The notes below the pieces were generated by a model. That model made no database searches and was not told the DNA's origin. It was given only the letters and a program-made list of their open reading frames with translations. From UHGV virus genome UHGV-0152227: a stretch of 43,955 nucleotides of DNA. One strand, 5' to 3'. Positions 7,903 through 37,437 of this stretch are shown here, piece after piece. The stretch is from a virus. The first letter of the stretch is position 1. Each line of letters begins with the position of its first letter. The translations under genes and the position numbers were made by a program.

Positions 7903-8160
7903 ATGCAGCAGTATCACTATCCACTGGAAGACGGATTTACCGAAAGGATTCACACGCCGGGAGGCGTCAGATCACTGGTGGAGGGATCGCACTTGATGAA
8001 ATTACTCCGGGATCTCGATAAGGATGGATTTAATGTCGATGGCCCACTTGCCGAACTGACTGCACTGATTAACTACGTCACCAGCTCACAGATGTCTATG
8101 CAGGATCTGCAAACACATCTCGACTATTGTGCCGAACAATTACGAAAACAAACCAGATAA
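7903..8160 (+). CDS. 85-aa stand-alone homologue of the antirepressor C-terminal domain
   Basis: GGAGA RBS 7 nt before the ATG at 7903. By hand alignment it is about 40 percent identical to the shared C-terminus of the 8476 and 41902 proteins (IH.P.GV..L.E.S.LM.LL..L..DG..V.G..AELT...Y...D.QTH..Y). Confidence 0.7.
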   Translation: MQQYHYPLEDGFTERIHTPGGVRSLVEGSHLMKLLRDLDKDGFNVDGPLAELTALINYVTSSQMSMQDLQTHLDYCAEQLRKQTR

Positions 8161-8191
8161 GGTTTGCAATTACCAAGTGGAGTGCTTATAT

Positions 8192-8238
8192 TTACCTTTG
8201 CGGTAAATTTACATCGCACTCCTCTTGTGCCATAGTAA
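8192..8238 (+). promoter_or_regulatory. operator plus promoter of the antirepressor-1 leader
   Basis: Perfect dyad TTACC TTTGC GGTAA (8192-8206), then TTTACA (8208-8213), 17-bp spacer, CATAGT (8231-8236). Confidence 0.5.
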
Positions 8239-8296
8239 TCGGGTACTGGCAAAATCCAGTGCCGGGATTGGCGTCCCGAGTTACTAAGTGGCGCAT

Positions 8297-8320
8297 ACCA
8301 CGCCAGACGTGGTTTTTTTA
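8297..8320 (+). terminator. rho-independent terminator/attenuator inside the antirepressor-1 leader
   Basis: Stem ACCACG (8297-8302) / CGTGGT (8308-8313), loop CCAGA, then a T6 run. Two more hairpins precede it (ACTGG..CCAGT and CGGGA..TCCCG). Confidence 0.7.
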
Positions 8321-8344
8321 TGCGTTAAGCACAGCTATATCCGA

Positions 8345-8420
8345 ATTATGGTGGGCTGGGCAGGGGTCCGAAAGGACGCCGGTACCACTTAGGCCGGTAC
8401 GCCAACCTTGTCCAGTTCAC
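8345..8420 (+). ncRNA. candidate c4-like antisense RNA 1 (boundaries approximate)
   Basis: ATGGTGG (8348-8354) is complementary to CCACCAT (8471-8477, includes the ant1 ATG). CCACTTAG (8385-8392) is complementary to CTAAGTGG (8457-8464, overlaps the SD). A closing helix pairs 8355-8362 with 8409-8416 (6 WC + 2 GU). No plausible ORF. Confidence 0.4.
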
Positions 8421-8475
8421 CACCAGTAATTGGCGTTGCGGTGGTGATTAAAATCACTAAGTGGAGATAACCACC

Positions 8476-9186
8476 ATGGCTAATGCTCAAACTGCCATCT
8501 TCAAATTTGAATCTGTTAACCCTATCCGTTCCATCATTATCGATGGCCAACCATGGTTTGTAGCCCAAGACGTTTGTAGTGCGCTGCGTATCCAAAACGT
8601 CACCCAAGCACTTGAAAAACTGGATGATGATGAAAGGTCTATGTTCAACATAGGGCATGAACATCGTGCAATTTTTGACAGCCGAGTAAAAGAGATCAAC
8701 ATCATCTCCGAGTCAGGCCTCTACACACTGATCCTCCGCTGCCGCGACGCAGTGACACCAGGCACTATCCCCTACCGCTTTCGTAAATGGGTTACAGGTG
8801 AGGTTCTTCCTCAGATCCGCCGCACCGGAAGTTACATTAAAAACTCGCTCCCGCAGGAAGAACGCATAAAGATGGTTGCCGACCAGGTTGCAAACGCCAC
8901 AGCATCAGCAGTGATGCAGGCAATGAAGATAGAGAACAAAACCTACAGCGCCCCACTGAAGCCCGGCTACCGTAGCCTGATTCATTCGCCGTCTGGTGTT
9001 CTCGGCCTGACGGAGAACTCACTGCTGATGAATCTGCTGAACCAGTTACAGGAAGACGGGCACGACGTATCGGGCGCGGCGGCGGAGCTGACCACCATGT
9101 TCTGCTACATCGTCGGTGTGAGCAAATGCCTGCGTGATATCCAGACGCACGCGGAGTACATCAACGACAAGGCTGGGTTCTTCTGA
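8476..9186 (+). CDS. antirepressor 1 (BRO-N N-terminal domain + shared C-terminal domain)
   Basis: BRO-N signature (FESVNPIRSIIIDGQPWFVAQDVCSALRIQN...SESGLYTLILR). GGAG RBS 9 nt before the ATG at 8476. Confidence 0.8.
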   Translation: MANAQTAIFKFESVNPIRSIIIDGQPWFVAQDVCSALRIQNVTQALEKLDDDERSMFNIGHEHRAIFDSRVKEINIISESGLYTLILRCRDAVTPGTIPYRFRKWVTGEVLPQIRRTGSYIKNSLPQEERIKMVADQVANATASAVMQAMKIENKTYSAPLKPGYRSLIHSPSGVLGLTENSLLMNLLNQLQEDGHDVSGAAAELTTMFCYIVGVSKCLRDIQTHAEYINDKAGFF

Positions 9187-9210
9187 CGGGCGGCGGCACA
9201 GGGATGTGCC
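8944..9210 (+). repeat. 267-bp direct repeat, copy 1 (3' third of antirepressor 1 plus downstream hairpin)
   Basis: About 97 percent identical to 42378-42646. About 7 base differences were counted by eye in the coding part, and all are synonymous. Confidence 0.9.
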
Positions 9211-9230: not shown

Positions 9231-9273
9231 TTGCAGACTGTGGGTGAATAGCGTACTATTACCTCAAGGGTAA
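9231..9273 (+). promoter_or_regulatory. promoter plus operator of the toxin-like pair
   Basis: TTGCAG (9231-9236), 17-bp spacer, TACTAT (9254-9259). Perfect dyad TTACC TCAAG GGTAA at 9259-9273, abutting the -10. Confidence 0.55.
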
Positions 9274-9333
9274 ACGGATTGGTTTCATTTTTATTAATCC
9301 GTGTAATGAACTTATGAGATATGAGGTAATGTC

Positions 9334-9513
9334 ATGCGAAACGAAAAATTGCAGATGCGTAGAGCGCAAGCTGCCGCAAGACGTTCTTTCAATGGAAGCG
9401 TAGAGTACGTAAAAGTTACTATGACAAAAGATCACGCAAGTCGCGTATCCCGCGCTTTCTTTGATTCTCGTAACAATAAGGAAAATTATGAGTTCGTCTG
9501 CGTCGCAGAATGA
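9334..9513 (+). CDS. 59-aa basic protein, candidate antitoxin/regulator (below the ORF-track size cut-off)
   Basis: ATG at 9334 with a GAGGT RBS 6 nt upstream. MRNEKLQMRRAQAAARRSFNGSVEYVKVTMTKDHASRVSRAFFDSRNNKENYEFVCVAE. Its 3' end overlaps the next gene start by 26 nt. Confidence 0.45.
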   Translation: MRNEKLQMRRAQAAARRSFNGSVEYVKVTMTKDHASRVSRAFFDSRNNKENYEFVCVAE

Positions 9514-10033
9514 TAAAAATCAAATTGTCAGATATAAGGGTCGAGTATTGCATACGCAAAATTTCTCGGCCCTTTGTGCATCTGATCTTGAGCTGAAGAA
9601 AGTATCTGATGCCTTTACCCAGTATTGGAAAACGGGATACCATCCATCTCTTGGTAAAGATGCTGCATTTGCTCGTCCGACAGAAATGCTTAAACTAAAT
9701 GTCAGGCATACTCATGTCGATAACCAAGACTATATTCCAGAAGATAGTGATAAAAAACACACTGGTAAAAAATCATCTTGGGATGCATGGAAAAATATAG
9801 CGTCTGTGCAAGTAAAATGCATACCAACAAGTGATTGCTTTTTAGTTTATTCGGTAAATCACAATCGTGATGCGCTGGTTATGTTTTTTGTTGACGCAGA
9901 TGCCCACAACATAACTGAGCAAGAAGAGTTTAAAGAGGCAGCAATCACTATCAGTTATCAATTCTTTCAGAAAACAAAAACAGAACCAATGCCTTTAGAA
10001 GAAGATCTTTTTTCTGATAAATGGAAGGAATAA
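9488..10033 (+). CDS. YafO-like toxin-family protein (tentative), 181 aa
   Basis: AAGGA RBS 6 nt before the ATG at 9488. By remembered alignment to E. coli YafO: SLGKDAAFARP..LNVRHTHV matches IFGRDALYDD..ERVAHIHL, and PTSDCFLVYSV...ALVMFFVDADAH matches RTNDEAHLVYC...AWLLIAILKPEPH. Confidence 0.5.
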   Translation: MSSSASQNDKNQIVRYKGRVLHTQNFSALCASDLELKKVSDAFTQYWKTGYHPSLGKDAAFARPTEMLKLNVRHTHVDNQDYIPEDSDKKHTGKKSSWDAWKNIASVQVKCIPTSDCFLVYSVNHNRDALVMFFVDADAHNITEQEEFKEAAITISYQFFQKTKTEPMPLEEDLFSDKWKE

Positions 10034-10055
10034 GCCCGCGTTGCGGGCTTTTTTG
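10033..10055 (+). terminator. rho-independent terminator after the toxin-like gene
   Basis: Stem AGCCCGC / GCGGGCT, loop GTT, then TTTTTG. Confidence 0.85.
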
Positions 10056-10085
10056 TGGACGAAACAAAAGTCAGTGCTACACTCA

Positions 10086-10113
10086 TTGACGCCACATTGA
10101 GGTGGCTTATAGA
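10086..10113 (+). promoter_or_regulatory. sigma70-type promoter of the small secreted peptide gene (no operator)
   Basis: TTGACG (10086-10091), 16-bp spacer, TATAGA (10108-10113). Confidence 0.4.
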
Positions 10114-10126
10114 TGGAAATTTCACA

Positions 10127-10288
10127 ATGAAAAAAGCATTTGCTGCACTGTTCGTTTTGTTGTCTCTGGTAGCTTCAACTCAGGCCTTTGCCGGTCGTTG
10201 TCAGCACGACAGCGATACTGCCGCTGACGGCTCCCGCTGCGGTGGGCGTTCTGCGGATTCCCGCCCTGGCGGCGGTGGCATTCGTTAA
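10127..10288 (+). CDS. 53-aa secreted peptide (signal peptide + 31-aa Gly/Arg/Asp-rich mature part with 2 Cys)
   Basis: MKKAFAALFVLLSLVASTQAFA|GRCQHDSDTAADGSRCGGRSADSRPGGGGIR. GC-rich, with its own promoter and hairpins on both sides. Confidence 0.55.
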   Translation: MKKAFAALFVLLSLVASTQAFAGRCQHDSDTAADGSRCGGRSADSRPGGGGIR

Positions 10289-10324: not shown

Positions 10325-10885
10325 CTACATTGATATATGATTCATAAAGTAGCTTAAAGATTTACTTCCCAGAAAAGAAATTTCTTTTCCTGGATATGTC
10401 GCAATAATTGAGCATGACTTATCCCCGTTAGAGGTAACAAATCCTGAATAACCTACTTGTTCTTTACCATTTTGTTGCTTGGCTAAAAAGTAGAGGTAGC
10501 TTATCTTTTTGCCCTCTGGGTAAAACTCTGCCAAACCAGTATCGGTGATTGAATATTTTATTCTCCCGCCTTGAGTAACGTTTTCCATCTCAAGTTTAGC
10601 TATGTCTTTTCTGTTGTATTCAGCATTGATTTTCCTTTCGAAATCAATGTTGTTTTCAAATGAGTAGGAAGCAACAGTCTGAATAGATGGGAACACGTTT
10701 ATCTGGATGCCTCCACAGTCGGCACAGGTATAAAGGTATGAATCAGATGGAATCCCCATAAAAGAAAACTGAGTTACCTTAAATTTATCGCTATCTCCAA
10801 AGTATTGAAGTTCGCATTTAACATTTTGCCCTGCAAAAGAAAATGCAGACATCAATATTGAAACAAAAAATATAATTGCCTTCAT
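10325..10885 (-). CDS. AT-rich secreted/periplasmic protein of unknown function (186 aa)
   Basis: Signal peptide MKAIIFFVSILMSAFSFA|GQ. Its start lies 2 nt after the stop of the 850-aa ejection protein gene (TAATAATG), yet the base composition is clearly more AT-rich than the late operon. Confidence 0.75.
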   Translation of the reverse strand: MKAIIFFVSILMSAFSFAGQNVKCELQYFGDSDKFKVTQFSFMGIPSDSYLYTCADCGGIQINVFPSIQTVASYSFENNIDFERKINAEYNRKDIAKLEMENVTQGGRIKYSITDTGLAEFYPEGKKISYLYFLAKQQNGKEQVGYSGFVTSNGDKSCSIIATYPGKEISFLGSKSLSYFMNHISM

Positions 10886-26620: not shown

Positions 26621-26688
26621 ATCAATGACTCCGTACGCAATTAAATTATTACCAATTTAACCACATATGATTTATTTATCGTAGATAG

Positions 26689-26725
26689 TTGACATTTAAC
26701 GCACAAATTATTACCTTTAGGGTAA
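26689..26725 (+). promoter_or_regulatory. promoter plus operator of the tRNA/gp49 moron
   Basis: TTGACA (26689-26694). Perfect dyad TTACC TTTAG GGTAA (26711-26725) overlaps the expected -10 position. The -10 hexamer itself is poor (TACCTT). Confidence 0.45.
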
Positions 26726-27047
26726 GTAAATGGTTCATTCCGGTTATTAACCTGACTGGCTTGTCGTTAAATTGAACAGGTGGAGTGAGCTTTTATTTTG
26801 AGCAGTACGGCGTATGGCACATGCGCCGATAGCGGTCTGGATACGTTTAAGGGGCTCCCTCCCTTGCTCGGGCAAACGAACCAGGTAGCCGGAATGTGCA
26901 AGTCGAGCGGTTTTATTCCGCGCACGGGGATTCACCATCCCGGCGATTCGGTGTGACGCCTCGGAAGAGACGAGGGTACAACGATGAGAGCATTTATGGA
27001 GCCGCGACAAAGTGTGGCGCCTTAACAGGCTAAGTGCTCTCAGCGTT

Positions 27048-27124
27048 GTGGCATTAGCTCAGTTGGACAGAGCAACCGCCTTCTAAGCGGTTGGTCGCAG
27101 GTTCGAATCCTGCATGCCACGCCA
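27048..27124 (+). tRNA. tRNA-Arg (anticodon UCU, reads AGA), CCA encoded
   Basis: A full cloverleaf folded by hand: acceptor GTGGCAT/ATGCCAC, D stem GCTC/GAGC, anticodon stem ACCGC/GCGGT with loop CT-TCT-AA, T arm GCAGG-TTCGAAT-CCTGC, discriminator G, then CCA. Confidence 0.92.
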
Positions 27125-36718: not shown

Positions 36719-37303
36719 ATGAAAAGTATCCAGGACGTCCGCAGGCAAAATCTCAACGACTTGATCGACCGTGAATTCAATGGTGTTCAGACGCGGATGG
36801 CAGAAAAACTTGGAACTCAGGCAAATCTGGTAAACCGCTGGGCTCTTGGCAAGAAGGTTATCGGCGACCAGGTTGCACGAAAAATTGAAGCTGCCGCCAA
36901 TAAACCCCGTAACTGGCTTGATATCGATCGCTCGCTTTCTCAGGAAGGTTTTCAGCCTGTCGGCCCGAGCGATATAGGTCAGCTGGCGGCTCACAACCTG
37001 GAACGCTGGATGAGCGAAAGCCGCGACCTTTCAACGCAGGGAAAACTACACCGCGCATCCGGCGTCGCCCAGGTGACAATCAGCCGCCTGTTAAACAATG
37101 AGGTCAGCGTTTCCATTTCCACCCTGGAGAATGTTGCATCCGCATTCGGGCGTCACGGCTATGAATTACTGATTCACCCGCACGACCCTGCGACCATCAA
37201 CTATGATCGCTCGCGCTACGCATTGTTACCCGAAACCGAGAAAGCAAAGATCGAAAGTTACATTGAATTTGTCATCAACCAGAACGAAAAAAACAAACAA
37301 TAA
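36719..37303 (+). CDS. prophage repressor with two tandem HTH_XRE domains and no S24 peptidase domain
   Basis: HTH 1 is QTRMAEKLGTQANLVNRWALGKK...PRNWLD. HTH 2 is QGKLHRASGVAQVTISRLLNNEVSVSISTLENVASAFG. No Ser/Lys autocleavage module was recognisable. The RBS is weak or absent. Confidence 0.75.
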   Translation: MKSIQDVRRQNLNDLIDREFNGVQTRMAEKLGTQANLVNRWALGKKVIGDQVARKIEAAANKPRNWLDIDRSLSQEGFQPVGPSDIGQLAAHNLERWMSESRDLSTQGKLHRASGVAQVTISRLLNNEVSVSISTLENVASAFGRHGYELLIHPHDPATINYDRSRYALLPETEKAKIESYIEFVINQNEKNKQ

Positions 37304-37360: not shown

Positions 37361-37437
37361 TTACCTAATGGGTAATTTTTTTAACTCATATCTATTGACA
37401 TCAAACCAGATACGCATAATTATTACCTCAACGGTAA
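37361..37437 (+). promoter_or_regulatory. early-right promoter flanked by two perfect operators
   Basis: TTACC TAATG GGTAA (37361-37375); TTGACA (37395-37400), 17-bp spacer, AATTAT (37418-37423); TTACC TCAAC GGTAA (37423-37437). Confidence 0.6.

Follow-up and report, generated by a model that had tools for sequence, protein, structure and literature searches.

What would a temperate phage gain from accessory genes that are active only when immunity is lost? The question is raised by a two-gene cassette at positions 9231-10055 of UHGV virus genome UHGV-0152227, a stretch of 43,955 nucleotides (nt) that was analysed as a whole and is called the window below. The window is an epsilon15/phiV10-like (Uetakevirus) prophage of E. 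coli. The cassette codes for a protein of 59 amino acids (aa) and an overlapping 181-aa relative of the toxin YafO, and its promoter is abutted by a palindrome which recurs along the prophage. In our opinion it is probably a divergent type II toxin-antitoxin-like module, in which a YafO-like RNase is combined with a cognate partner and which the prophage repressor keeps silent. The cassette has a single promoter and a single terminator and is made up of the following elements (coordinates in the window, strand, description; ORF, open reading frame).

9231..9259, strand +: sigma-70-type promoter, with -35 TTGCAG at 9231-9236, a 17-nt spacer and -10 TACTAT at 9254-9259; belongs to the backbone slot
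9259..9273, no strand: candidate operator TTACC-TCAAG-GGTAA, a palindrome whose 5-bp arms match perfectly; shares its first base with the end of the -10 box
9323..9327, strand +: ribosome-binding site GAGGT of the small ORF, six bases upstream of it
9334..9513, strand +: 59-aa partner, putative antitoxin or modulator; its N-terminal helix is basic and is followed by a core motif and, at the C-terminus, by the tail F-[VC]-x-A
9478..9482, strand +: ribosome-binding site AAGGA of the toxin-like ORF, five bases upstream of it and within the 3' end of the small ORF
9488..10033, strand +: YafO-family protein of the long form (181 aa), RelE/HigB fold; putative toxin that would act as a ribosome-dependent mRNA endonuclease
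10032..10057, strand +: intrinsic terminator AAGCCCGC-GTT-GCGGGCTT followed by TTTTTTGTGG; overlaps the toxin stop codon, belongs to the backbone and is shared with phage phiv142-3

An earlier note on this DNA, made from its sequence alone, had listed the promoter, a perfect operator at the -10 box, both ORFs, their 26-nt overlap and a strong terminator, and all of them were found where it had placed them. The stem-loop of the terminator (10032-10050) has eight pairs, six of them G-C, a loop of three and the subsequent T-run TTTTTTGTGG, and is strong.

The YafO-like protein and its small partner

The ORF listing extends the toxin gene to a TTG at 9461; homologues conserve the ATG at 9488, the ribosome-binding site and the N-terminus MSSSASQ. 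The ratio of nonsynonymous to synonymous substitution rates (dN/dS) of the 181-aa ORF is 0.04-0.12, indicating purifying selection. Its product matches the PF13957 (YafO_toxin) profile over residues 46-148 with 26.0 bits (gathering cut-off 25, E 1e-5), and 22 of the 41 members of the long subfamily match the same profile at E <= 0.01. Comparison of the long-subfamily alignment (A2) with a set of short YafO proteins (A4) by hhalign gave a probability of 99.7% and E 5e-27 over 129 columns; A4 consists of 11 short proteins, all of which match PF13957 (best E 5e-29). Against E. coli K-12 YafO alone, the long subfamily scored 87% and E 4e-6. The resemblance to YafO which the earlier note had recognised in blocks of the sequence thus holds at profile level. 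A search of 1.84 billion representative proteins with a profile of 23 homologues returned 70 proteins, about 40 of them full-length relatives of 165-200 aa, with canonical YafO-like proteins of about 130 aa at the tail of the list. A contig scan with alignment A1 confirmed no loci.

The long form and YafO have in common the motifs G-[KR]-D, RP, H-x-H, [ST]SD-x-x-L-[VI]-Y and AH. Eight residues (F43, G50, G56, H76, S115, Y121, R127, and H140) are invariant in the 41 diverged long-subfamily sequences. The protein had been described as longer than YafO, with an acidic C-terminal extension, and this is borne out; the extra length is divided between an insertion of about 25-30 aa, located between the H-x-H strand and the TSD strand, in which W98 and W101 are conserved, and about 20 aa at the C-terminus, where the tail reads PMPLxExLFxxKW.

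An AlphaFold model built from the 41-sequence alignment reached a predicted local distance difference test (pLDDT) score of 92.5 and a predicted template modelling (pTM) score of 0.87. It superseded a first model based on the 23 close homologues only, which was unusable (pLDDT 57.9). The model has the RelE/ParE-superfamily fold: two N-terminal helices, an antiparallel beta-sheet and a C-terminal helix, superposing on RelE/HigB/YoeB. A Foldseek search of viral structures (BFVD) gave nothing meaningful, and among solved structures no chain has detectable sequence similarity to the YafO-like family. We have high confidence in the homology to YafO and in the RelE/HigB-like fold, both of which are directly established. 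From its homology, the protein most likely acts on mRNA as a ribosome-associated endonuclease.

The 59-aa ORF is likewise under purifying selection (dN/dS 0.17-0.36) and is a genuine gene. Its product is matched over the full length by phrog_6685 (function unknown). The core motif in the window and its close relatives is V-x-M-[ST]-x-[ED]-x-[AS]-x-x-[VI]-S-R-x-[FM]; the whole partner family shares V-x-[MV]-[ST]-x-E-x-[SA]-x-x-[IVM]-S-R-x-[MF] together with the hydrophobic C-terminal F-[VC]-x-A. As this tail is kept in a locus where the genes do not overlap (L053), selection on it acts at the protein level. The earlier note had called the small protein basic, which does not hold as a trait of the family: its isoelectric point (pI) varies from 5 to 11 across homologues, and the charge is not conserved. 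It had also found the protein unlike any recognised antitoxin, and here it was right. No Pfam family, PDB sequence or named relative was found for the partner: the Pfam search gave sub-threshold noise only (e.g., DUF6955, E 0.041) and no match to PhdYeFM or other antitoxin families, while a partner profile run against 5.8 billion proteins retrieved unnamed proteins only. The best local hhalign match places the partner helix on the C-terminal tail of YafN (E 0.24), which is a lead only. A ribbon-helix-helix regulator was considered and rejected: the V-T-M-T strand and the helix resemble the first half of such a protein, but there is no second helix and no family match.

In the same locus pairs (L034, L036, L037, and L042), the synonymous rate dS is 0.22-0.74 for the small ORF and 0.7-2.9 for the toxin ORF (window regions 9334-9483 and 9515-10033, respectively). 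The several-fold lower dS of the small ORF may point to a further constraint on its nucleotide sequence or to a mosaic origin.

Every toxin homologue examined is directly preceded by a homologous small ORF with the same core motif. The pair was found in 44 IMG/VR loci, in Cedecea and Serratia prophages, in two siphovirus contigs (where it is located between tail genes), in one contig that also carries a HicB-like gene and tail genes of P2 type, and at a chromosomal site adjoining a type I restriction-modification system, where the small ORF is uncalled. The ORFs overlap by 26 nt in the window and by 8-53 nt in most other loci, and are separated by a short gap in a few. The form of the partner varies. 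In phage EC.W1-9 it has 139 aa, with the core motif at the C-terminus. In the L051/L052 lineage, the ORF overlapping the toxin gene is acidic (65 aa) and is preceded by an additional basic gene of 62 aa; we read the acidic ORF as the putative partner solely because its motif is similar. A small upstream partner unrelated to YafN likewise accompanies at least one canonical short YafO.

Identities of partners and toxins to the pair of the window co-vary (Spearman rho 0.92, p 1.6e-7). The two genes are adjacent and co-oriented and are inherited as a unit in varied mobile contexts, which is the layout of a type II module. The toxin-antitoxin layout proposed in the earlier note is borne out by several comparisons: the genes strictly co-occur, overlap and diverge together, and the pair has moved between contexts that are unrelated. 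We regard the pairing as real and conserved with high confidence.

In E. coli, the full cassette is present in 61 of 5426 complete genomes. In phage TL-2011b, gp45 and gp44 correspond to it with 98.9% identity; RefSeq labels gp44 'type II toxin-antitoxin system YafO family toxin' and gp45 a hypothetical protein. The family assignment of the toxin is therefore already known. In E. coli N1131 (L055 2604-2783), the one genome examined in detail, the Prokaryotic Genome Annotation Pipeline (PGAP) names the toxin and makes no call for the 59-aa partner ORF. Toxin-antitoxin surveys relying on annotation would count this toxin as an orphan.

The operator, the prophage repressor and an exchangeable slot

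With at most one mismatch allowed, the window contains 14 copies of TTACCN5GGTAA, where 0.71 would be expected, and none of 100 shuffles reached 14. The copies, the repressor gene around which some of them cluster, and a hairpin upstream of the cassette are as follows.

7812, 8192, 9259, 26711, 36264, 37423, strand +: operator copies abutting the -10 of promoter-like sites, in the same arrangement relative to the -10
29838/29856, 34300/34362, 36601/36649, 37361, no strand: further operator copies; the clustering includes the flanks of the repressor gene
36719..37303, strand +: 194-aa helix-turn-helix repressor, with weak matches to helix-turn-helix families and no peptidase domain detected
9195..9210, strand +: hairpin GGCACA-GGGA-TGTGCC with TTTAAAT behind it, shortly downstream of the Bro-N antirepressor stop codon

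The remaining copy, at 10509, sits inside an ORF. Four copies (36601, 36649, 37361, and 37423) flank the repressor gene, and the one at 37423 has the same geometry relative to its -10 box as the cassette operator at 9259, which spans the likely transcription start. Upstream of the cassette in homologous prophages (Cedecea, Serratia, and others), both half-sites are retained and the 5 nt between them vary. Enrichment and placement of the operator are thus directly established. Together with the clustering at the repressor gene and the conserved position, they uphold the view of the earlier note that the cassette is placed under a phage operator.

The immunity region is 99.1% identical to the region of phage vB_EcoP_ZX5 annotated as repressor. 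Overexpression of the ZX5 repressor, ORF21, lowered the transcription of lytic genes by about 99.9%; the operators of this repressor were not defined in that work (PMC9782041). Our literature search found no published operator map for an epsilon15/phiV10-type repressor and one experimental paper on the repressor. We infer that the 194-aa repressor is the trans-acting regulator that would occupy 9259-9273 and block the promoter in lysogens, and have moderate confidence in such gating of the cassette. By extension, the copies of TTACC-N5-GGTAA may define a candidate immunity regulon of the Uetakevirus-type prophage, and the motif itself is a candidate operator consensus for epsilon15/phiV10-type repressors.

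In an alignment of 10 diverged loci, the -35 TTG, the TAnnAT of the -10 box, the operator half-sites and both ribosome-binding sites are fixed in position, and the sequences between them differ. The block ATGAGGTxATGTCATG is kept in all loci of the upstream alignment except L004, and the block GATAAGGxxAAxTATGAGT around the toxin ribosome-binding site is conserved as well. Upstream of the cassette, only the -35, the -10, the phage operator and the ribosome-binding site are conserved. A generic promoter scan of the region did not list the cassette promoter, and an Rfam scan had no match within the cassette. Regulation by an antisense RNA or a structured 5' untranslated region (UTR) was rejected, the minus-strand hairpin at 9433-9455 and the 5' UTR hairpin at 9274-9302 not being conserved in homologous loci.

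Phage phiv142-3 (L002) has the same promoter, operator half-sites and terminator with other cargo in between. Its identity to the window ends just past the operator (~9274) and restarts at the terminator stem (~10034), and the slot is filled with two unrelated small ORFs, 4087-4254 (55 aa) and 4405-4563 (52 aa). Since these elements surround different cargo in phiv142-3, the promoter, operator and terminator belong to a slot of the phage backbone. The cassette had been described as a self-contained unit; all of the elements named are indeed present, but three of them are parts of the backbone slot, which is filled otherwise elsewhere. On this sequence comparison, the slot is an exchange point for cargo, and the cargo of the window is the two-gene module at 9275-10033. 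The slot architecture itself is directly established. On its upstream side, the hairpin at 9195..9210 looks like a weak, terminator-like insulator ahead of the cassette promoter. It has equivalents in the upstream alignment (L034, L037, L041, and L042), and the terminator scan did not flag it because its T-run is short.

Several other features of the prophage deserve mention. Between the operator-bearing promoter at 8164-8206 (operator 8192) and the Bro-N antirepressor ORF (8461-9186), Rfam finds an IsrK-like Hfq-binding RNA (8243-8319, 63.5 bits) and a C4 antisense RNA (8344-8427, 66 bits), both on the + strand. The layout is c4-ant-like, as in immI of P1/P7, and stands under the same TTACC-N5-GGTAA operator. 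Further upstream, an 85-aa ORF (7903-8160, strand +, phrog_450) has its own operator-gated promoter (7785-7826); it looks like a stand-alone copy of the Bro-N antirepressor's C-terminal domain, to which it is homologous. A strong promoter (TTGACA), abutted by the operator at 26711, lies upstream of the tRNA-Arg(UCU) gene at 27048-27124 (window 26680-27124, strand +), therefore the phage tRNA may also be repressor-gated. The gene that follows the cassette (window 10086-10288, strand +; ORF 10124-10288) codes for a 54-aa protein with a signal peptide (phrog_14503, 'membrane associated protein') and has an apparent promoter of its own, TTGACG-17-ATAGAT, without an operator, unlike the adjacent gated cassette. 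Near the integrase end of the prophage, Rfam matches sRNA-Xcc1 at 41771-41860 (strand +; 64.2 bits, gathering score 53).

In the heteroimmune relative L051/L052, whose toxin is about 35% identical to that of the window, a TATAAT box is abutted by a different palindrome, TTAACC-AAAGA-GGTTAA (2625-2639). As an operator TTAACC-N5-GGTTAA was rejected: with just one copy in the 6.6 kb examined, the call is unsupported.

Interpretation and rival explanations

If the cassette is the kind of module we think probable, the 59-aa partner would be translated first, from the same mRNA as the 181-aa protein. It would most likely bind and neutralise the nuclease via its short helix motif and hydrophobic C-terminal tail; judging from the sequences, we assign this putative antitoxin role to the partner with moderate confidence. 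In the lysogen, the 194-aa repressor on its operator would keep the pair silent. Induction, infection or antirepressor action would then lead to the synthesis of both proteins together with other early gene products. Control would in this way be delegated to the phage repressor rather than exerted by autoregulation of the module.

A number of results weigh against such an interpretation. Neither addiction nor defence offers an obvious rationale for a toxin-antitoxin pair that is not expressed in the lysogen. The protein binding TTACC-N5-GGTAA is assigned by position only. The cassette promoter is weak by consensus, with 7 of 12 positions matching, and the upstream alignment has no second conserved palindrome fit for autoregulation. 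In the partner, no DNA-binding domain is detectable, and its hhalign comparison with K-12 YafN is not significant (probability 0.3%, E 0.24). As for the toxin, its PF13957 score exceeds the cut-off by 1 bit, and a Foldseek search of the PDB with the model returned the same top matches, none of them significant (E 0.28 or worse). NCBIfam and PADLOC had zero matches for either cassette protein, and the literature search found nothing on the cassette or the long YafO subfamily.

The position of the cassette admits other explanations. It sits on an operator-gated, early-type promoter alongside other early units, and the fold of its larger product is that of the RelE/HigB RNases. Both facts would suit an endoribonuclease for the turnover of host or phage mRNA, made early in the lytic cycle and remodelling translation to the advantage of the phage like T4 RegB, a phage-encoded early RNase with a RelE/YoeB-related fold; the small protein would then tune timing or specificity and would not be an antidote. 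We consider this unlikely, as the pair also turns up in unrelated contexts without such gating, which fits an autonomous toxin-antitoxin unit better than a nuclease dedicated to the lytic cycle. To an equally small degree we would credit a module of abortive infection or addiction that protects the lysogen, in which the operator only modulates leaky expression and a stable toxin is freed by host shut-off or antitoxin decay. The operator covers both the -10 box and the start site, as at the early promoters beside the repressor gene; the neighbouring gene 10124-10288 has an operator-free promoter, therefore the phage can leave cargo unrepressed; and PADLOC gave no match. All this is at odds with protection of the lysogen. 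It is nevertheless favoured by the toxin-antitoxin layout within an accessory-cargo slot and by relatives that adjoin a restriction-modification system and a HicB-like gene. Lysogens of vB_EcoP_ZX5 also spontaneously release about 10^7 plaque-forming units (PFU)/mL (PMC9782041), therefore immunity is not absolute.

It is also conceivable, though very improbable in our view, that the RelE fold was repurposed for a non-toxic protein, such as a ribosome- or RNA-binding factor or a counter-defence protein, with the small protein as its structural subunit. The near-neutral charge of the 181-aa protein (pI 6.2), unlike that of many basic RNase toxins, would agree with this, as would the marginal YafO sequence match and the confident packing of the extra insertion and the C-terminal extension in the model. 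What speaks for retention of the toxin function is the invariance, in all 41 sequences, of the motif residues shared with YafO (G56, H76, S115, Y121, and H140, plus R127), and a dN/dS of 0.04-0.12, which fits a conserved active site.

Returning to a repressor-silenced toxin-antitoxin-like pair, we have low confidence in any specific biological purpose. Possible roles would be to kill or arrest cells that lose immunity, to compete with other phages, or to shut off translation in lytic growth. One tentative and rather doubtful proposal is that the module reports the loss of immunity: an RNase and a labile partner from an undescribed antitoxin family would be transcribed only upon inactivation of the repressor. 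Were this true, partial or illegitimate derepression, e.g., by the antirepressor of a competing phage or in an aborted induction, would leave free toxin and lead to cell arrest; or else host translation would be shut off by the RNase, committing the cell to lysis. In either case, the trigger of a toxin-antitoxin system would be the phage's own genetic switch and not autoregulation or proteolysis alone.

YafO is among the least understood RelE-type toxins, and the long subfamily supplies a confident model and invariant candidate catalytic residues (H76, R127, H140, and Y121). The small-partner family is undescribed and is often uncalled by genome pipelines. In the literature searched, we found no description of the long subfamily with its RelE/HigB-fold model, the small-partner family, the operator-governed slot or the candidate operator consensus.

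Comparison with known systems

E. coli YafO is a ribosome-dependent mRNA interferase which binds the 50S subunit and cuts 11-13 nt downstream of the AUG, and yafNO is damage-inducible via the dinB promoter under LexA control (PMC7781912). The cassette resembles YafN-YafO (dinB-yafN-yafO-yafP operon) in having a homologous toxin and a small upstream gene tightly coupled to the toxin gene. Like yafNO, it would be switchable by a repressor linked to DNA damage, LexA at dinB and presumably the prophage repressor here. In other respects the two differ: the toxin has 181 aa instead of 132, with the insertion and the tail; the partner is not of the Phd/YefM type to which YafN belongs; the module is phage-carried; and no autoregulatory operator is evident for it.

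HigB2-HigA2 of Vibrio cholerae and HigB1 of Mycobacterium tuberculosis, which represent the ribosome-dependent RNases of the RelE superfamily, have just 8-9% sequence identity to the 181-aa protein. HigA antitoxins are helix-turn-helix proteins, and the gene order in higB loci is reversed.

As for the regulatory arrangement, the immI region of phage P1 is the C1-controlled c4-icd-ant operon, headed by a C1 operator. The window is like immI in that an immunity operator is placed on the promoter of an antirepressor operon containing a C4 antisense RNA. P1 phd-doc is autoregulated and is not under C1 control. In the prophage of the window, the same operator would also gate the adjacent cargo slot, and the gated cargo is a toxin-antitoxin-like pair with a putative RNase.

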